Notes under the pieces: model-generated | Databases searched by the model: none | Told to the model about the DNA's origin: nothing | What the model saw: only the letters and a program-made list of their open reading frames with translations | Shown here: piece after piece, positions 698-33,498 of the stretch | How positions within the stretch are numbered: the first letter of the stretch is position 1 | How the letters are laid out: every line of letters starts with the position of its first letter | Virus record (IMG/VR): IMGVR_UViG_2711768056_000010 | DNA length: 33,498 bases | Source of the DNA: a virus | Lineage: Duplodnaviria > Heunggongvirae > Uroviricota > Caudoviricetes | Direction: 5' to 3' (one strand) | Translations under genes and position numbers: made by a program

Positions 698-1060
698 GGG
701 GCTGATTCTGGATTCGACGGGATTTGCGAAACCCAAGGTGCATGCCGAGGGGCGGTTGGCCTCGTAAAAAGCCGCAAAAAATAGTCGCAAACGACGAAAA
801 CTACGCTTTAGCAGCTTAATAACCTGCTTAGAGCCCTCTCTCCCTAGCCTCCGCTCTTAGGACGGGGATCAAGAGAGGTCAAACCCAAAAGAGATCGCGT
901 GGAAGCCCTGCCTGGGGTTGAAGCGTTAAAACTTAATCAGGCTAGTTTGTTAGTGGCGTGTCCGTCCGCAGCTGGCAAGCGAATGTAAAGACTGACTAAG
1001 CATGTAGTACCGAGGATGTAGGAATTTCGGACGCGGGTTCAACTCCCGCCAGCTCCACCA
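698..1060 (+). ncRNA. ssrA: tmRNA (transfer-messenger RNA, SsrA)
   Basis: Begins GGGGCTGATTCTGGATTCGACGG, contains the tag-reading frame GCAAACGACGAAAACTACGCTTTAGCAGCTTAA (ANDENYALAA*) and ends ...GGGTTCAACTCCCGCCAGCTCCACCA; 363 nt, matches enterobacterial ssrA from memory. Confidence 0.95.
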
Positions 1061-3562: not shown

Positions 3563-6500
3563 GCGTCGTATCCCCCCTGATCGCTGTAGTTACTCCTGGC
3601 TTTTGCCTTCAGCCTGCGTTCACGTTCATCAAGCTGGCGTGCCACCTCCCGCGCAATATCCTGCGCACTTTGTCCTGGCTGCGTCTGAATGATGATCTGC
3701 GTCGGTGCCTCAATCCGTTGAACGAGCGGCACAGTGGCTGCGCGACTCAAAATTGCTTCTCCACCTTTCGCGGGAAGTGCCAAAGGGTGCAACGGTGGAA
3801 GCTCTGCTGGCGCGGCAGCAACGCCCATCATTCCGGCAACAACGGCAGCCAGTGCAGCTGTATTTCTCCGGCTGGTCACATTTGCCGGGCCGTTAACAAT
3901 TTCCGGCCCGTTTTCACCGACGATGCCAAACTGCCCGCGCGGGATATACCCGCCGCTGTCATACATCCCCGCAAAGCCATATCCCCATGATGGAAAACCA
4001 CCCGATGGCATCATCACTTTACCGTCTGCATTCACCGTCGCAGGTTGCTGACGCGTCACGCTTTCCGGCAGTTTTGCCTTTGCGGCCTCTTTACTGACAA
4101 TGCCGAGCTTCTCCAGCAACCAGGAAACGCCAGATTTCAGGGAGTCCAGCGGATGCATGACCATATTCAGCCCTTCCGCCAGTGCCTCCCCGAATCGCCG
4201 CCCCATTGCCGCTGCGCTCTGCAGTTCGGCAGAGGTCGACTTAACGGGCGTCAGCAGATCAGTAAACCAGCCCCACAGCGCCTGCACTTTGTCGCCAATC
4301 CACTGGAACACGGGCTTAAGCGGTTCGAACGCTGCACTGATGGGACCTGCCGCCGCTTTGAATCCTTCCACCACGCCACCGAGAAATGCGGTGATGGGTT
4401 GCCAGTATTTCCAGACAACCAGCGCCACGCCCGCCAGTGCAGTAACCACAAGACCTATCGGACTGAGCAGAGCACCTAACAGACCAGATATGGCATACAG
4501 GGCAACGCGCAGCATCGCCAGCGGGCCGGATGCGAGCACACGCAGCACCGCGCCTGCGGCAGCCAGCCCACCGCGTAGTGCTGCCAGTGGATTCATAAAC
4601 ATCACAGCAACAGCACGTAAACCGGATAATCCAGACCGCAAAAGTGCAACCGGCGCACCTGCTACAGTTTTCAGGACATTCCCCATCAGTGATACCGTGC
4701 GACGCAAAGACGACAACGGAGCAGTAAGTAAACCCGCTGCGTTGCCCGATGAAGCAAGCCCGCGTCGCAGCAGTGCCAGTGGTGCGCCAGCCAGCCAGGA
4801 CAACGCGCTGCTGGTTCGAGTTACTGCTGCCGTAACGGAAGGTAACGTTTTGATACCCAGCACAGAGAATCCCAGACGGATCACTGCCAGCGGCCCCAGC
4901 ACTGCAGCCAGCGCCACCGCTAAGGTGCCGAGGCCTACGGTAACCGCAGCCACAACAGCCACTACTTTCATCAGTGTGCCTGTCAGTTCCGGGTTAGCTT
5001 CCACCCAGCGGCGCAACGCCCCCGTGACGCTTTTCACCGTGTACAGAATATCCATCAGCGGCTGGCGCAGCGTTTCGCCCAGGCTGCTGAAGGTGTTCTG
5101 CGCTCCGGTTTTGACCAGCAACCACTGAGCAGAAAGTGAGTCTTTGTTGATGTCGGATTCTTTCTGCATCGAACCGAGCGCATCATTGCCCGCTGTCAGT
5201 TTTAGCTGGCGCTGTAGTTCCGGCAGGTTGTTTGCCAGTTTCGCCGCGTCATCGCCAAACTCTTTACCAAACAACATGGTCATGGCAGACAGACGCTTGT
5301 CCTGCGGCAGTGCGTTCACCTTCTCCAGTACACGCTGGATGGTTCCCATCGCATCCTTCGTCATCTGCTTTTCAATCACTTCAGGATTGAGTTTCAGCAG
5401 ATTCATCCCTTCAAAGAAACTCTTGCTTTGCATGGTGGCAATGGACAATTCACGCACCATCGCGTTTGCTGCACTGGCTGCAACCTCCGGCGCAGCGCCC
5501 AGTGTCAGAAAGGTGGAACCCAGTGCCGCCGCTTTACGATAATCCAGACGGTCAGCCACACCGCCCAGACGTTGCATCACATCAATGATGTCCGCCCCTT
5601 TCGACATGGCGTTATCATCCAGATAGTTCAGCGCATCGCCGAGCTGTTCAATATTGCGGGTAGGTATTTTGTAGAGCTGGGCGATTTTCCCCAGACTTTC
5701 TGACAGTTCATCCGCTGGCAGCTCAAAGGCTGTTGCCGCCTTTGCTGCCGTACTGGCGAAGGCCAGCAGGTCACGTTTCTGGTCTTCCCAGCTGTCGTCA
5801 GGGTTTGCCACGTTCATGCGCGCACCACCTTCAACCAGTGCAGCGAAGTCCACCGCACCGTTTTCCATCGGCAACTGTTCGCTGGCAGCCTTGATGGCAT
5901 CCTGCATTTCGTAAAAACGCGCAGTGCGGTTGCCATTATCGTCACGCAGACCATTGACCTGCTTTGCCACACCTTTCATGGCATCTTCCATGCTGGTATA
6001 GCTTTTTACCGCCGCCATCACTGGCGCGCCCATTGCCAGCCCTGCAGCCGTGGTGGTGGCTCCGGCTCCTGCGATACGATCGCGCACTTCAAGCCGTCTT
6101 GAGTATTGTTCTCTGGCAGCGTTCATCCGTGCCTGTTGTTCACCCAGACGTTTAAGTGCTTTTTGCTGGCCCTCCAGTGCCTGCCTTGTTTCTTCAGCAT
6201 TTTTCTTAAGTTCTCGCTGGGCACTACTGAGTTGCCTGGTATCAATCCCTGATTCTTTAAGTGCCTGACGTTGTCTCTGGACCGCCCCCAACAAGCCGTT
6301 ATAGGTCTGCTGAAGTTCCTGTACTCGTGTTTTGGCCTGACTGAATAACTTTGCCTGCGCGGCGGTTGGCCTGTTAGTGGCAGCAAATTGTGTGGCGAGT
6401 TTTGCCGCCTCTTCGCGGGCTGCGTTCAGGTTGTTGGCTGTTATGGCTAGTTGCGAGCGCGTCTTGCGAAACTCATCAATTCTGCCAGCCTGCTTATTCA

Positions 6501-6636
6501 GTTCTTTGAGGCTGTTTCTGGTATTCTGAATTGCGCCAGCCAGCTCTTTCGAACTGGCCTGTGCAGCACGGAATGGGCGGGTGAGTTTGTCAACCGCATT
6601 AAGAATGACCTGCAGACGCAGGTTGTTATCACTCAT
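3559..6636 (-). CDS. T: Tail tape measure protein T
   Basis: 1025 aa, Ala/Leu/Gln-rich with an N-terminal coiled-coil-like region and hydrophobic Gly/Ala repeats; sits between E/E' and U. Confidence 0.9.
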   Translation of the reverse strand: MSDNNLRLQVILNAVDKLTRPFRAAQASSKELAGAIQNTRNSLKELNKQAGRIDEFRKTRSQLAITANNLNAAREEAAKLATQFAATNRPTAAQAKLFSQAKTRVQELQQTYNGLLGAVQRQRQALKESGIDTRQLSSAQRELKKNAEETRQALEGQQKALKRLGEQQARMNAAREQYSRRLEVRDRIAGAGATTTAAGLAMGAPVMAAVKSYTSMEDAMKGVAKQVNGLRDDNGNRTARFYEMQDAIKAASEQLPMENGAVDFAALVEGGARMNVANPDDSWEDQKRDLLAFASTAAKAATAFELPADELSESLGKIAQLYKIPTRNIEQLGDALNYLDDNAMSKGADIIDVMQRLGGVADRLDYRKAAALGSTFLTLGAAPEVAASAANAMVRELSIATMQSKSFFEGMNLLKLNPEVIEKQMTKDAMGTIQRVLEKVNALPQDKRLSAMTMLFGKEFGDDAAKLANNLPELQRQLKLTAGNDALGSMQKESDINKDSLSAQWLLVKTGAQNTFSSLGETLRQPLMDILYTVKSVTGALRRWVEANPELTGTLMKVVAVVAAVTVGLGTLAVALAAVLGPLAVIRLGFSVLGIKTLPSVTAAVTRTSSALSWLAGAPLALLRRGLASSGNAAGLLTAPLSSLRRTVSLMGNVLKTVAGAPVALLRSGLSGLRAVAVMFMNPLAALRGGLAAAGAVLRVLASGPLAMLRVALYAISGLLGALLSPIGLVVTALAGVALVVWKYWQPITAFLGGVVEGFKAAAGPISAAFEPLKPVFQWIGDKVQALWGWFTDLLTPVKSTSAELQSAAAMGRRFGEALAEGLNMVMHPLDSLKSGVSWLLEKLGIVSKEAAKAKLPESVTRQQPATVNADGKVMMPSGGFPSWGYGFAGMYDSGGYIPRGQFGIVGENGPEIVNGPANVTSRRNTAALAAVVAGMMGVAAAPAELPPLHPLALPAKGGEAILSRAATVPLVQRIEAPTQIIIQTQPGQSAQDIAREVARQLDERERRLKAKARSNYSDQGGYDA

Positions 6637-7065
6637 CGTTGGCCCCGCTTCTCTGAATCGCTTTATACCGCCATTCCAGCACTTCGGTCAGCGGCATAAC
6701 GTCAGTAACGGATGGCGGCCAGTGAAAAATGGTGGCGATATCTGCCACCAGATCGTCAACCGTCAGGCTGTCGGTAAACCGGCAAGCACCGACTTCTTCA
6801 ACAAAAAAGTGACAACCTCAACCGACATGGCAGTGAGATCTGCCGGGTCCATCTCTGCAATTTCCTGTGCAGTCAGTGCCGGGCTGGAGATGCGGGGGAT
6901 CACGGTCATCATCGCGTTCACATCCATATCCATAATGGCCTGCAGGCGTGTACCGCGTAGCGCACCAGACTGCGGTTTACGCAGCACAATTTCGGTGATT
7001 TCTGTTTTACCGCGCTTGATGGGGGTATCCAGTTGAATGGTCTTTTCAGTCTGCTTATCGCTCAT
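6629..7065 (-). CDS. E': Tail assembly chaperone E+E' (-1 programmed frameshift product)
   Basis: Minus-strand heptamer T_TTT_TTG (plus coordinates 6802-6808); the -1 frame stays open for about 46 codons and ends at TGA overlapping the T start (ATGAGTGA), the classical P2 E/E' arrangement. Confidence 0.7.
6763..7065 (-). CDS. E: Tail assembly chaperone E
   Basis: 100-aa ORF upstream of T; contains TTTTTTG slippery heptamer near its 3' end. Confidence 0.85.
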   Translation of the reverse strand: MSDKQTEKTIQLDTPIKRGKTEITEIVLRKPQSGALRGTRLQAIMDMDVNAMMTVIPRISSPALTAQEIAEMDPADLTAMSVEVVTFLLKKSVLAGLPTA

Positions 7066-7119
7066 TTTACTGTCCTGTCAATTGGGTTCTGGCGCGGTAT
7101 CCCGCGCCGTTCAGATATA

Positions 7120-7635
7120 TCAGAGGCCGAGGGCGTTGCGGTGCGCTTCCATCAGGTCCACACCGTCCACAGTTTCCACCATGTTGATAAGGTCCACTTC
7201 ATAGAGCACCTCACCATTGATGGTCAGCTTCGCGTAGCTGTTGGTACTGGTCACTTTGGTCGTGTTGCTTTCGCCCGTCTTCCACTCGCCGGAATCCACT
7301 TCTTTGTGACGTCCACGCACGACAAGCTCCACGGCCTGCACTTCCCCGGTATCGTCACGCTGAATAGAGCCGGTAAAGCGCAGCTGGATGCCATCCACCG
7401 TGGCTTTACCCATCTGTTTAAACAGCAGCAATTCAGTACCACCAATGGAAAATTCTGTGTCCAGCGCACTGTCATCAAGCCCCAGATCCACATCCACCGC
7501 ACCCGGCATTCCGCCGCCGCGATACTTCTCATATTTGCGGGTAAATTTCGGCAGCGTCAGCGACTCAACGATCCCCTGCCAGTTGTTCCCGTCGTTAAAC
7601 AGGTTCAGGTGTTTTAATTTGCGTGGTAAAGCCAT
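7120..7635 (-). CDS. FII: Tail tube protein FII
   Basis: 171 aa; P2 FII-like; immediately downstream of the sheath gene. Confidence 0.88.
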   Translation of the reverse strand: MALPRKLKHLNLFNDGNNWQGIVESLTLPKFTRKYEKYRGGGMPGAVDVDLGLDDSALDTEFSIGGTELLLFKQMGKATVDGIQLRFTGSIQRDDTGEVQAVELVVRGRHKEVDSGEWKTGESNTTKVTSTNSYAKLTINGEVLYEVDLINMVETVDGVDLMEAHRNALGL

Positions 7636-23309: not shown

Positions 23310-24428
23310 TTAGTTCGTAATGCCAATTTCCTTCAAAACTTTAGCCATTTCCGTCTGACTTAACTTGTTCCTGAACAAAGTGAAATTTTTCATTTTTTCC
23401 GCTCGTTGCCCTTTTGAAATAGTAATCTTTCCTGATGCTGATAACTCAGAGTCAAAAAAATAACATATTGTTGAATTTGAATTCTCCATATTTGACTTGA
23501 TACAATTCCATATGCTTTCTTTTTTCATTTCACACATTCTAGGACCAAAAATGATCCCTTTAACAACATTAGCATCATGATGAAAAATATGTCCAATATT
23601 TCGATTTACGCGTCTTTGAACATGCCGCTCACTCCCTATTCCTGCATTTGCCTCCGGAATAAACATTCGATATTCAGCTTCATATCTCCAAAATCTATTT
23701 TTAGTTAAAAATAACTCTGCAACATTTGCGCTTGGGTCTAGAAGTGAAACCTCTTTAGCCTGATTACTATATTTTATTGGCTTAACTGGAAAATTAAATT
23801 TATCTGATGAAAATAAATTTTCTCTTAGCTTCATTCCAGTATAGGGTATACCATCAATATTAAAATCCTGCGTTTCATAAATCACAACACAACCACTAAA
23901 GCCAGCAGCATAATGCGCCCACATCATACGATCTAACGCATTAGCTGAAAATGACACACTGAATACTGCAGGAACTATTTTCCTATACAACCTTTCTTTG
24001 ATACTGTTCTCGCAAAGTGAAACCAAATATTGGCGTGGTTCAGGAATATTTCCATAAATAGCAGAATTAATCACATTGATAGGTAGTAAACCATCATCTA
24101 TGATCTTACGTATCTCATCAACGTGTGAGTCAAACAGGCTATCTAATGACTCAATGCTACTTTTTATTTTTTTTCCTCTAAAAATACGATTCAATCCCTT
24201 ATGTATTTTCAAATTACTCAAATCCAATATGTGACTCAAATTTTTATAGGATTTATCGCAAGGAGAACGCAATAAAATGTCCCATAATTTCAATTTATTA
24301 TCGAAGCGATAATCTATATTGAGATCATTGGGATCATTCAATTGCGCAGGAGCGGAAAAATATAATTCATTATAACGAATAGCTTTCTCAAAGAAGAAGT
24401 CCGGACGGTAATACTTGAAAAGATACAT
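23310..24428 (-). CDS. Orphan DUF2971-like protein (hotspot cargo; candidate defence/abortive-infection gene)
   Basis: 372 aa, markedly AT-rich; motifs LFKYY...ELYFSAP..LNDPND, MWAHYA and FWRYEAEYR resemble DUF2971 as I remember it; own upstream intergenic region and own terminator. Confidence 0.6.
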   Translation of the reverse strand: MYLFKYYRPDFFFEKAIRYNELYFSAPAQLNDPNDLNIDYRFDNKLKLWDILLRSPCDKSYKNLSHILDLSNLKIHKGLNRIFRGKKIKSSIESLDSLFDSHVDEIRKIIDDGLLPINVINSAIYGNIPEPRQYLVSLCENSIKERLYRKIVPAVFSVSFSANALDRMMWAHYAAGFSGCVVIYETQDFNIDGIPYTGMKLRENLFSSDKFNFPVKPIKYSNQAKEVSLLDPSANVAELFLTKNRFWRYEAEYRMFIPEANAGIGSERHVQRRVNRNIGHIFHHDANVVKGIIFGPRMCEMKKESIWNCIKSNMENSNSTICYFFDSELSASGKITISKGQRAEKMKNFTLFRNKLSQTEMAKVLKEIGITN

Positions 24429-30610: not shown

Positions 30611-31243
30611 ATGTTAAACATCAGAATGGGTTCCGATACGGGAGGTAAAGCAGCTATTGAGAGGCTGCTTGCGGCTTATGGATTTACAACTAAGCAGGCA
30701 TTAAGCGAGCACCTGAATGTCTCAAAAAGCACTATGGCGAACAGAGTGTTACGTGACAGTTTTCCTGCTGACTGGATAATTCAGTGCGCACTAGAAACCG
30801 GTGTTTCGTTACTTTGGTTAGCTACAGGACAGGGAAGCATGAAAGGAGGAAGTGAGCCTGAAAAAAGTTCTCACAATGAGAACAAACAAGCAATTAAACC
30901 GTTATCCAAACTCATAACTCCATCTATTCCTAAAGGAACCTTGGAGAATGGACAACTCAGTATTGATGAAGAGATTTTCTTAGACCACAGCATATTACCT
31001 GCAGATTATGAAGAATCGATGTTCTTAGAAACCCCTACTGATTGTTATCTCATCGATAAATCAGTTAAACAAGTCAGCAATGGATTCTGGCTTATCAATA
31101 TTGATGGAATGATTATTATTGCAAAAATCATGCGGATTCCCGGCAATAAGATTGTAGTAAATCAAGATGAAGCGTCTTTCGAGTGCTCTGCTGATGATGT
31201 GGAAGTTATTGGGCGTGCAGTCAAAGTAATAAAGAGTATCTAA
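30611..31243 (+). CDS. cI: CI-like immunity repressor
   Basis: 210 aa; N-terminal HTH region (ERLLAAYGF...CALETGVSLLWLATGQG) resembles 186 CI; directly upstream of int. Confidence 0.8.
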   Translation: MLNIRMGSDTGGKAAIERLLAAYGFTTKQALSEHLNVSKSTMANRVLRDSFPADWIIQCALETGVSLLWLATGQGSMKGGSEPEKSSHNENKQAIKPLSKLITPSIPKGTLENGQLSIDEEIFLDHSILPADYEESMFLETPTDCYLIDKSVKQVSNGFWLINIDGMIIIAKIMRIPGNKIVVNQDEASFECSADDVEVIGRAVKVIKSI

Positions 31244-31245
31244 AC

Positions 31246-32268
31246 ATGACTGTCAGAAAACAGCCAAACGGTAAATGGTTGTGCGAGTGCTATCCCAATG
31301 GACGCAATGGCAAGCGCGTGCGTAAGCAATTTGCTACGAAAGGCGAAGCCATTGCTTTTGAAAGCTTCACAATGGAAGAGGTAAATAAGAAACCTTGGCT
31401 AGGAGAAAAAGAAGATCGGCGACAACTGTCAGAAGTGATTGAGCAGTGGTATTCCCTGTATGGTCAGACACTCGCTGACCCAAAGCGTTTGATGGCAAAA
31501 TTAAAAATTATTTGTACCGGTCTCGGCAATCCTATTGCCTCGGAACTGACAGCAGGTGATTTCACAAAATATCGGGAAGCCAGATTAAAGGGGGAGGTCA
31601 AAAATGAAGACGGTGTTTTCATGTCCCCCGTAAAACCTCGCACGGTTAATCTTGAGCAGCGTAACCTGTCATCTGTATTCGGCACATTGAAAAAACTAGG
31701 ACACTGGTCAGCACCAAACCCATTGGCAGGGCTTCCAACATTTAAAATTGCTGAAGGTGAATTGGCATTCCTATCTCAGGAGGAAATTAAACGCCTACTT
31801 GACGCCTGCGCAAACTCTCAAAATCCAAGTCTGTTGATGATCGCAAAGGTATGCTTGGCTACCGGCGCGCGCTGGAGTGAAGCGGAAAACTTACAGGGCC
31901 ACCAATTATCAAAATACCGTATTACCTATACAAAGACGAAAGGAAAGAAAAATAGGACAGTACCGATATCTCAGGCTCTCTATGACGAACTCCCCAAAAA
32001 CAGAGGGAAGTTATTCACGCCATGCAGAAAGGCTTTTGAACGAGCGGTCAAACGGGCTGGTATTGAACTGCCTGAAGGTCAGTGTACCCATGTTCTGCGC
32101 CATACATTCGCCAGTCATTTTATGATGAACGGTGGAAACATACTCGTTTTGAAAGATATTCTTGGGCATTCAGATATTAAAATGACTATGATTTATGCAC
32201 ATTTTTCCCCTGATCATTTAGAAGATGCAGTAACTAAAAATCCACTTTATTCGCTATTAAAGGACTAA
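31246..32268 (+). CDS. int: Tyrosine integrase (P2/186 family)
   Basis: 340 aa with C-terminal catalytic motifs (...HVLRHTFASHF...LGHSDIKMTMIYAH...). Confidence 0.9.
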   Translation: MTVRKQPNGKWLCECYPNGRNGKRVRKQFATKGEAIAFESFTMEEVNKKPWLGEKEDRRQLSEVIEQWYSLYGQTLADPKRLMAKLKIICTGLGNPIASELTAGDFTKYREARLKGEVKNEDGVFMSPVKPRTVNLEQRNLSSVFGTLKKLGHWSAPNPLAGLPTFKIAEGELAFLSQEEIKRLLDACANSQNPSLLMIAKVCLATGARWSEAENLQGHQLSKYRITYTKTKGKKNRTVPISQALYDELPKNRGKLFTPCRKAFERAVKRAGIELPEGQCTHVLRHTFASHFMMNGGNILVLKDILGHSDIKMTMIYAHFSPDHLEDAVTKNPLYSLLKD

Positions 32269-32271
32269 ATA

Positions 32272-33498
32272 ATGACTCTCCATCAAACTTTATCTAAAGA
32301 ATTAAGAGATTTATTTGTTAGTATTTTAAGACGTTCTCTTTTTCGCCCCCCCATCAAAATAAATGGGGATATAGTCTCTGATTTTTCAAACAGATGCGAG
32401 CAGTTCAAAGAGTGCCTAAATGAATACATTTGTGATAACAATAATGCTGCTTCCGAAAGAGTTAAGCCAAGAATTAAAACTATTGAAAAAATACAACATG
32501 GATTAACTAATTCTCTTAAAGCATTTTTATCTGGCGACATTAAAGGAGCCTACGATATTTTTGATGAAGTTTTATCATACCCTACTGTCTATAGACATCT
32601 AAGAAGAATATCCATTCCACTAAAAGAAATATGTAATAAGCACAAGCCTTTATTCAGGGTAAGAAAGTCAGATAGACCAGTCGTAACAAGAAAGGAAATA
32701 TTTCATATCCCATTCACTCATCGACATCTTGTCAATGCTCAACGCTACTCCGTTGCAGGTTTGCCATGCCTTTACTTAGGTTCATCTCTCTATATATGCT
32801 GGCAGGAAATGGATAAACCTGACTTTGATAAATTATACCTATCATCATTTATATCTTGGGATGAGGAATCTTATATTTTAAATTTAGCTGCAGATTTTCT
32901 TTACAGTAGAACCGCTAAAGGATTTTACGGTGATATTAGTAATAGAGATAACCTCATTAAAATATCATATTTAACTTTATGGCCTCTGATAATTGCATGT
33001 AATTATTTAAAGCAGAATGAAAACTCTTCATTTAATCAAGAATATATCATCCCAAATTTGTTAATGCAGTGGATAAGTCGACTTGAAGATAGAGCTATTG
33101 TCGGCATAGCATATCGCTCAACAAAAATAAAAAGAACAGCAAACTCACACTTAGCAACTAATGTCGTCTTGCCTCCAAAAGTAAACTATGAAGATACAAT
33201 CACAAAACCTTATTGTCAGAAACTATTGTCAATGTTTGAGTTTACTCAACCTGTATCATGGCAGGTTTTGAAAACATTAGACTATAAAATTGATAATGAA
33301 ATAAATCAAGAGCAAGAAAAAGCAATTCATTTACTAAAACAGAAAGAAAGATTAAGTGGCATACAAGATTTAAATGAAGATCTTATAAACCTTTATCCTT
33401 TAACAGACTTCTACAAGCTAGAACAGTGCATGGATCGCCTGCTGCAGTATGATGTACTTGAGATAAAATCTGGCGGCACTTTGGCGGCAGAGCATTAA
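32272..33498 (+). CDS. Hypothetical cargo protein with RES-like motif
   Basis: 408 aa, strongly AT-rich; starts 4 nt after int stop with AAGGA Shine-Dalgarno sequence; RYSVAGLPCLYLGSSLYICWQE resembles the Arg...Glu...Ser core of RES domains; stop codon is the last triplet of the window. Confidence 0.55.
   Translation: MTLHQTLSKELRDLFVSILRRSLFRPPIKINGDIVSDFSNRCEQFKECLNEYICDNNNAASERVKPRIKTIEKIQHGLTNSLKAFLSGDIKGAYDIFDEVLSYPTVYRHLRRISIPLKEICNKHKPLFRVRKSDRPVVTRKEIFHIPFTHRHLVNAQRYSVAGLPCLYLGSSLYICWQEMDKPDFDKLYLSSFISWDEESYILNLAADFLYSRTAKGFYGDISNRDNLIKISYLTLWPLIIACNYLKQNENSSFNQEYIIPNLLMQWISRLEDRAIVGIAYRSTKIKRTANSHLATNVVLPPKVNYEDTITKPYCQKLLSMFEFTQPVSWQVLKTLDYKIDNEINQEQEKAIHLLKQKERLSGIQDLNEDLINLYPLTDFYKLEQCMDRLLQYDVLEIKSGGTLAAEH

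Follow-up and report, generated by a model that had tools for sequence, protein, structure and literature searches.

The right end of IMG/VR virus record IMGVR_UViG_2711768056_000010 raises the question of what a 408-amino-acid 'hypothetical protein' does directly behind a phage integrase gene. We analysed the whole 33,498-nucleotide stretch of DNA in this record (the window), which holds a prophage of the P2/186/Fels-2-like type, and asked what its last gene, open reading frame 408 (ORF408; RefSeq WP_024143611.1), encodes. Profile comparison and structure modelling indicate that ORF408 is a RES-domain protein that stands alone, and comparison with related prophages points to a gene that is exchanged as a cassette. 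At odds slightly better than even (about 0.55), we regard ORF408 as a nicotinamide adenine dinucleotide (NAD+)-destroying enzyme (NADase) that would be expressed in the lysogen and act by itself in abortive infection or superinfection exclusion.

ORF408 carries a divergent RES domain

The initial annotation of this window had suggested that ORF408 contains a RES-like core. The Pfam profile for RES (PF08808) matched the protein in the right register (amino acids 142–180 against profile positions 10–48) at 11.6 bits and an E value of 0.29, and did not reach its gathering threshold of 23.2 bits. Weak matches to the same profile were found in 13 of 25 close relatives (best E value 0.006) and in 14 of 47 diverse relatives (best E value 2e-5). 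Searches of PADLOC 2.0 and NCBIfam with ORF408 gave no match, and PHROGs assigned the protein to PHROG 7835, a family of unknown function (E value 7e-179). When profiles of the ORF408 family were run with hmmsearch against PDB sequences, they returned either nothing or designed helical bundles that matched the N-terminal domain; a profile of aRES, a RES family described below, returned noise only. Foldseek found no match with an E value below 0.6 among the viral predicted structures of BFVD.

Stand-alone RES defence proteins were described in January 2026 (Osterman et al., bioRxiv 10.64898/2026.01.28.702374). These aRES proteins defend Escherichia coli by depleting NAD+, and mutations in their active site abolish defence (bioRxiv 10.64898/2026.01.28.702374). 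As a reference, we took three experimentally validated aRES sequences (Table S4, Osterman et al., bioRxiv 10.64898/2026.01.28.702374) and later a 30-member alignment; the profiles used carry PF08808 at 53–55 bits. ORF408 was represented by a 47-member alignment of diverse relatives that are 25–47% identical to it. Profile–profile comparison using hhalign aligned the two families over amino acids 121–304 of ORF408 with a probability of 94.2–94.8% (E values of 5.6e-8 to 1.2e-7). Six active-site residues of ORF408 (R131, R158, Y168, E179, S283 and N297) match invariant or near-invariant aRES columns (Table 1), and the modelled structure has the three-dimensional fold of RES and ADP-ribosyltransferases. 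The hidden Markov model of Pfam therefore left the initial suggestion below threshold, but profile–profile matching and the fold bore it out, and on these sequence comparisons we consider the RES assignment of the family solid. The peptide that had been likened to the Arg/Glu/Ser core (amino acids 150–180) does include R158 and E179, but the serine, S283, lies outside it. RES domains have Tyr and Asn at positions where other ADP-ribosyltransferases of the R-S-E clade have Ser and Glu (PMC9503650), and we infer that Y168 is this RES-typical Tyr. Judged by its residues, the enzyme core looks catalytically competent.

The identity of the family had already been hinted at in database records: the copies in Escherichia phage Cartapus and in RefSeq SPbeta (YopC) are labelled as putative RES proteins, and some UniRef names point the same way.

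Two further domains flank the catalytic core

We modelled ORF408 using AlphaFold2 (AF2). Confidence in the catalytic loop was low when 25 close sequences were used, and we therefore rely on a model from 47 diverse sequences. In this model the protein divides into an N-terminal five-helix bundle, the RES domain, which is of the NAD+-cleaving branch of the ADP-ribosyltransferase fold, and a C-terminal helical domain (Table 1). The long N-terminal extension described in the initial annotation is present, with the RES domain starting at about amino acid 123. Within the close family, mean identity is highest in the RES domain (64%), intermediate in the C-terminal domain (51%) and lowest in the N-terminal domain (41%), which is a candidate sensor or regulatory domain.

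Neither flanking domain resembles its counterpart in aRES, the family defined by a RES domain together with PF18870 (HEPN/RES-NTD1; bioRxiv 10.64898/2026.01.28.702374). PF18870 did not match ORF408 or any of 72 relatives scanned singly, and two aRES proteins used as positive controls did match (E values of 3.6e-4 and 2.7e-10). The whole-protein hhalign comparison with aRES reached weakly into the N-terminal domain of ORF408; we rejected a divergent HEPN/RES-NTD1 at this position, as a comparison restricted to the two N-terminal domains gave a probability of 0.5%. The four invariant cysteines of the aRES N-terminal domain are absent from the ORF408 family. The C-terminal domain did not match any part of aRES by hhalign, and no relatives of it were detectable outside the family.

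A large family with distant members next to defence genes

An exhaustive search with the ORF408 family profile returned 2,677 clusters at 50% identity with E values of 1e-3 or lower, 923 of them with E values of 1e-30 or lower. Among the best 150 clusters listed, most are 340–420 amino acids long and match along most of the profile. ORF408 is 31% identical to YopC of Bacillus phage SPbeta and 43–50% identical to proteins of Salmonella phages RE2010 and SopEPhi and of Cartapus. In the P2-like phages Cartapus, RE2010 and SopEPhi, the family gene occupies the same place after int, between int and attP; Cartapus is an isolated phage. Literature searches made here found no functional study of YopC or of the family genes of RE2010, SopEPhi or Cartapus. 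In the assembly collection, the index lists the Salmonella allele for more than 6,000 blocks, and the order cI–int–RES was found at every place examined.

ORF408 is not a chance reading frame, because it runs for 1,227 nucleotides in DNA with 33% G+C and about 2,700 clusters contain homologues of it. That the gene is a remnant, in decay or without catalytic activity, would suit an annotation as hypothetical everywhere and a score under the Pfam threshold but is extremely improbable: the coding sequence is intact and 99.5–100% identical in seven complete E. coli genomes, its catalytic residues hardly vary among relatives, AF2 models the protein with confidence and most of the best 150 listed clusters are of near full profile length.

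A scan of a genome collection with the close alignment returned seven loci. Distant relatives outside P2-like prophages (loci are numbered with the prefix L) have a range of neighbours: at L011, Cas3g together with an HNH protein from a candidate defence family; at L019, a Gabija-like OLD-TOPRIM ATPase gene and one for a UvrD(-like) helicase; at L021 and L022, a type I restriction–modification operon; and at L024 and L025, the integrase on another mobile element's edge. At L019 (3522–5357; P0151, 611 amino acids), the RES protein has a restriction-endonuclease-like domain fused to its C-terminal end (Pfam RE_LlaMI; MvaI_BcnI matches weakly). In this small sample, the defence-gene neighbours are consistent with a role in defence.

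ORF408 is the last gene of an ssrA prophage

The window begins with the host gene smpB (bases 1–483, encoding SmpB) and the host transfer-messenger RNA gene ssrA, so the record is not a phage genome as such. From base 1061 onwards it consists of the prophage, integrated in ssrA of an E. coli chromosome, with genes that include ogr, tail, capsid and terminase genes, the replication protein gene gpA, a Dam methylase gene, cII, an apl-like gene, cI and int. The window closes on the stop codon of ORF408. DNA identical to the window is present in two complete E. coli genomes (L001 and L002), which remain identical to each other for another 130 bp, the last part of which repeats the ssrA 3′ end, GGAATTTCGGACGCGGGTTCAACTCCCGCCAGCTCCACCA; beyond this repeat they differ, with ypjA in one and a P4-like satellite in the other. 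This second copy is the right attachment site, attR, and its core lies about 90–130 bp downstream of the ORF408 stop codon in both genomes. Because attR extends to 130 bp beyond the window, ORF408 is the last prophage gene, located between int and attR, and the right end of the prophage with its att repeat becomes visible only in full genomes. The initial annotation had proposed to look beyond position 33498 for an att site and a partner gene; the att site is there and a partner gene is not, and a location of ORF408 in conserved host sequence is excluded.

Directly past attR, several genomes carry a tandem second element at ssrA (L002, 8814–14174; L014, 7572–13227; L016; L018). This element is a P4-like satellite (integrase, psu, ogr/delta) with cargo of its own, for example SIR2-like and DUF87 proteins or an N6 methylase. 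Genes for QatB, QueC and TatD lie past attR in another genome.

The gene is a cassette in a variable slot

The DNA between int and the attP arm behaves as a slot with sharp borders. On the left, similarity to related prophages stops about 18 bp before the int stop codon; 149 E. coli records match cI–int at 80–90% identity and, among the matches listed, only up to the end of int. On the right, prophages become similar again within the final 30 bp of ORF408, where two direct repeats (TGGCGRCA) are kept at five loci (L001, 8472–8499; L003, L005, L006 and L014) whatever the cargo, even where a RES gene is lacking. These repeats are probably the arm-type sites of attP that are bound by Int. As the resumed similarity falls inside the gene, the ORF408 tail GGTLAAEH is read-through into the conserved attP arm; other RES alleles end before the arm.

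The contents of the slot vary beside nearly constant integrases. Prophages with int 91–94% identical encode RES proteins that are merely 49–55% identical, and the Salmonella and Cartapus alleles are only about 50% identical to ORF408, although their int is about 92% identical. Next to int genes that are 91–94% identical, we found the slot in four states: with one RES allele, with another, with a gene for a membrane protein, and with such a gene alongside a RES gene. At L003, an unrelated 352-amino-acid membrane protein takes the place of RES (5268–6326); at L006, the gene for a homologous membrane protein (4810–5937) has a start that overlaps the int stop codon and is followed by the RES gene. 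These membrane proteins (352–375 amino acids) have predicted N-terminal membrane helices, and neither had a match in Pfam or PADLOC. The 352-amino-acid protein of L003 was considered as a RES relative and ruled out (hhalign probability of 0.2%). Taken together, sequence comparison identifies the RES gene as a swappable cassette in the int–att slot of ssrA-integrating 186-like prophages.

At L004 (strain CV839-06, 5264–7376), AT-rich DNA follows int and is in turn followed, on the opposite strand, by a gene annotated as 'anti-phage dCTP deaminase'. No attR core was found in the L004 stretch fetched, and the gene is either prophage cargo or part of a rearranged ssrA island.

The P2 lysogenic-conversion genes old, tin and fun exclude other phages, and they are of a different protein family from ORF408. 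Like such exclusion genes and the cargo of P2-like defence hotspots (PMC9122126 and PMC13586616), ORF408 is AT-rich foreign DNA in a slot that differs in content among prophages nearly identical elsewhere; RES proteins are unmentioned in the passages of PMC13586616 drawn on here. According to this 2026 survey of thousands of P2-like prophages, the int–att region of P2-like prophages is a minor defence hotspot that holds 3% of systems (PMC13586616). ORF408 shows both features of such hotspot cargo, a location between int and att of a P2-like element and variable content at that location.

Gene anatomy suggests expression with cI and int

ORF408 starts four nucleotides after the end of int (TAA at 32266–32268 and ATG at 32272, with 3 nt between them) and has its own Shine–Dalgarno sequence, as the initial annotation had described. 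The sharp difference in composition reported there also stands, with 33.2% G+C in ORF408 (26% at third codon positions) and 43.9% in int; values are 40.1% for cI and 52.6% for the remaining prophage. The genes cI, int and ORF408 are packed on one strand with gaps of 2 nt and 3 nt. No terminator-like sites were found on the + strand from the cI start to the ORF408 stop codon, and promoter-like sites between cI and the end of ORF408 were not commoner than in shuffled sequence. Given the short gaps and the lack of a terminator-like or a standout promoter-like site, co-transcription of the three genes from the lysogenic promoter is plausible and fits the gene anatomy. In phage 186, cI and int are transcribed from pL.

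In E. coli strain PK5 (NZ_CP074024.1, 1139795–1143069), an IS1A element splits the match to window positions 31000–33498 in two; this match takes in int and the RES gene as well as the 3′ part of cI.

How the gene is oriented and packed also bears on whether ORF408 could serve the lytic cycle or counter-defence, by reshaping host NAD+ metabolism or by destroying immune signals derived from NAD+. The gene is present in virion genomes (Cartapus, RE2010, SopEPhi and, as yopC, SPbeta), as such a role would have it, but here it is laid out as part of the lysogenic cI–int unit and not of the lytic operons. Moreover, non-phage relatives are located beside CRISPR, restriction–modification and Gabija-like genes, and NADase-type domains are under-represented in viruses (PMC9503650). 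We therefore hold a lytic or counter-defence role to be very unlikely.

No antitoxin gene accompanies ORF408

Neither an Xre/COG5642 (DUF2384-type) antitoxin gene nor a conserved small open reading frame lies beside ORF408, which is flanked by int upstream and attR downstream; the initial annotation was right that an adjacent Xre-type partner is missing. The cI repressor has a helix-turn-helix domain, but its gene is two genes away and it has the C-terminal domain of 186 CI. ORF408 might still be an addiction or stabilisation toxin that kills cells upon loss of the prophage if its antitoxin had gone unrecognised, whether as a small RNA, as cI or Int, or as its own N-terminal domain acting with a labile factor. 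Several results besides the missing neighbour make this quite unlikely. The 90 bp from the ORF408 stop codon to the att core are conserved attP arm that is present also at cassettes without RES, and no antitoxin-like fold was detected within the ORF408 protein. Outside prophages, too, relatives at the loci examined are single genes without a recognisable antitoxin gene, and the validated stand-alone aRES proteins need no antitoxin.

A proposed role in the lysogen

In the reading that we favour, a single-protein exclusion or abortive-infection NADase, ORF408 would be made in the lysogen through read-through of the cI–int lysogenic transcript and would be held inactive by its own accessory domains. 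Infection by a heterologous phage would switch the enzyme on. The active enzyme would destroy NAD+, most probably in a phosphorolysis that yields nicotinamide and ADP-ribose-1''-phosphate like that of MbcT, Res, NatT and aRES, and the loss of NAD+ would arrest the cell and block the invading phage.

A fuller version of this model is more tentative, and we put it somewhat short of even odds. The ORF408 family would then comprise immune sensors that each consist of one NAD+-phosphorolysing protein and that arose independently of aRES. The N-terminal domain, not described before, and perhaps the C-terminal domain would sense some part of a phage and free the active site of RES, and P2/186-like prophages would swap alleles as a cassette in the interval from the int end to the Int arm sites.

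Several points weigh against assigning ORF408 to this role. The Pfam RES score stays under the gathering threshold, and PADLOC 2.0 and NCBIfam do not recognise the family. The N-terminal domain appears unrelated to that of aRES, so neither regulation nor trigger can be transferred from aRES to ORF408. Gene packing and the pL operon of phage 186 are the grounds on which we infer transcription in the lysogen, the defence-island evidence comes from a handful of loci, and the function assigned to the family draws on sequence, a model and analogy. The fold does not settle the chemistry either, because ParT, a RES toxin, ADP-ribosylates a protein (Prs) rather than degrading NAD+. An effector of defence or exclusion that resembles ParT, and that would ADP-ribosylate a macromolecule instead of depleting NAD+ as a phosphorylase, is an unlikely alternative.

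As judged by sequence and profile searches, what is new here is a widespread family with a separate RES architecture that is missed by Pfam, NCBIfam and PADLOC 2.0. RES domains go unmentioned in the description of DefensePredictor (PMC13092281). Provided that the family defends cells, RES-based NAD+-depleting immunity extends well past the aRES architecture, and Pfam thresholds, NCBIfam and PADLOC 2.0 overlook it. If the novel-sensor model is true, the lysogen gains a defence of the aRES chemical type. With one allele in thousands of Salmonella assemblies, prophage RES genes could shape phage susceptibility, which would concern phage typing and therapy in Salmonella, E. coli, Klebsiella and Enterobacter. 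One gene, set in a cassette slot with precise bounds in a phage that is well understood, is also a tractable system, suited to asking how a RES enzyme stays silent without an antitoxin and what activates it. Should the gene be cargo without a phenotype, the annotation is still corrected from hypothetical protein to RES-domain protein.

Other features of the window

Coordinates are collected in Table 1. Just inside the left attachment site, attL, a 160-amino-acid open reading frame (1184–1666, + strand) has a BRCT match below threshold and a weak match to the C terminus of PADLOC family PDC-S48; its homologue in Cartapus carries the label 'putative exonuclease'. A second AT-rich cargo gene (23310–24428, − strand, 372 amino acids, local G+C of 31–35%) is located between the gpA replication gene and the portal and terminase genes, where P2-like phages have their main defence hotspot. 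Its product matches the PADLOC candidate defence family PDC-S31 (E value 7e-24), and a match to DUF2971 is below threshold.

Table 1 Positions of ORF408, its domains and active-site codons, and neighbouring features in the window
Feature	Position	Strand	Basis or remark
ssrA (transfer-messenger RNA, host)	698–1060	+	ARAGORN; 3′ end (1029–1060) is the attL core (pattern search, alignment)
cI repressor (186 type)	30611–31243	+	Pfam Phage_CI_repr and Phage_CI_C; first gene of the putative cI–int–ORF408 unit
int, 186-type tyrosine integrase	31246–32268	+	Pfam Int_N and Phage_integrase; left border of the slot
Shine–Dalgarno sequence AAGGA	32260–32264	+	7 nt upstream of ATG, within the last int codons; read from sequence
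ORF408, 408-amino-acid stand-alone RES-domain protein	32272–33498	+	Open reading frame list; ATG start, 1,227 nt
N-terminal domain, amino acids 1–122, five-helix bundle	32272–32637	+	AF2 model; predicted local distance difference test score (pLDDT) about 89–98
RES (ADP-ribosyltransferase-fold) catalytic domain, amino acids 123–306	32638–33189	+	
C-terminal helical domain, amino acids 307–408 (AF2: to about 393)	33190–33495	+	AF2 secondary structure
R131 codon (LFRVR motif)	32662–32664	+	R in 46 of 47 relatives; aligned with invariant aRES R184
R158 codon, triad R (QRYS)	32743–32745	+	47 of 47 relatives; aligned with aRES R215
Y168 codon (LYLG)	32773–32775	+	47 of 47 relatives; aligned with aRES Y225
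E179 codon, triad E (WQEM)	32806–32808	+	47 of 47 relatives; aligned with aRES E236
S283 codon, triad S (YRST)	33118–33120	+	S in 42 of 47 and T in 3 of 47 relatives; aligned with aRES S334
N297 codon (NVVLPP)	33160–33162	+	44 of 47 relatives; aligned with aRES N349, invariant in aRES
Two direct repeats TGGCGGCA (TGGCGRCA), 11 bp apart	33471–33489	+	In the last ORF408 codons; alignment

Comparison with known RES systems

The RES–Xre toxins (MbcT/MbcA, Res/Xre, NatT/NatR, VPA0770/VPA0769 and ParT/ParS) are encoded in two-gene toxin–antitoxin operons, and their matched chains measure 144–250 amino acids. ORF408 belongs instead to a putative phage lysogeny operon and has two extra domains flanking RES. 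It is not a RES–Xre toxin, because it has no antitoxin gene and exceeds those toxins two- to threefold in size.

Comparison with aRES reveals differences within a shared outline. The aRES proteins have PF18870 and the four N-terminal cysteines, both missing from ORF408; the N- and C-terminal domains of the two families are without similarity and their RES domains are about 16–17% identical. On Pfam RES, aRES scores 53–55 bits and its close homologues are named 'RES family NAD+ phosphorylase' by NCBI, in contrast to the 11.6 bits and 'hypothetical' label of ORF408. Unlike the validated aRES proteins, which are also insensitive to NARP1, a common phage pathway that rebuilds NAD+ (bioRxiv 10.64898/2026.01.28.702374), ORF408 is prophage cargo beside int and is known from its sequence. 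By these comparisons, ORF408 resembles aRES in outline as a stand-alone RES enzyme, yet falls outside aRES as defined. Both are single RES proteins without an antitoxin gene, and at 408 amino acids ORF408 is within the 300–600 of aRES. Their RES domains are homologous, with the aligned R, R, Y, E, S and N conserved in both families, and both families occur in Enterobacteria and in defence contexts.

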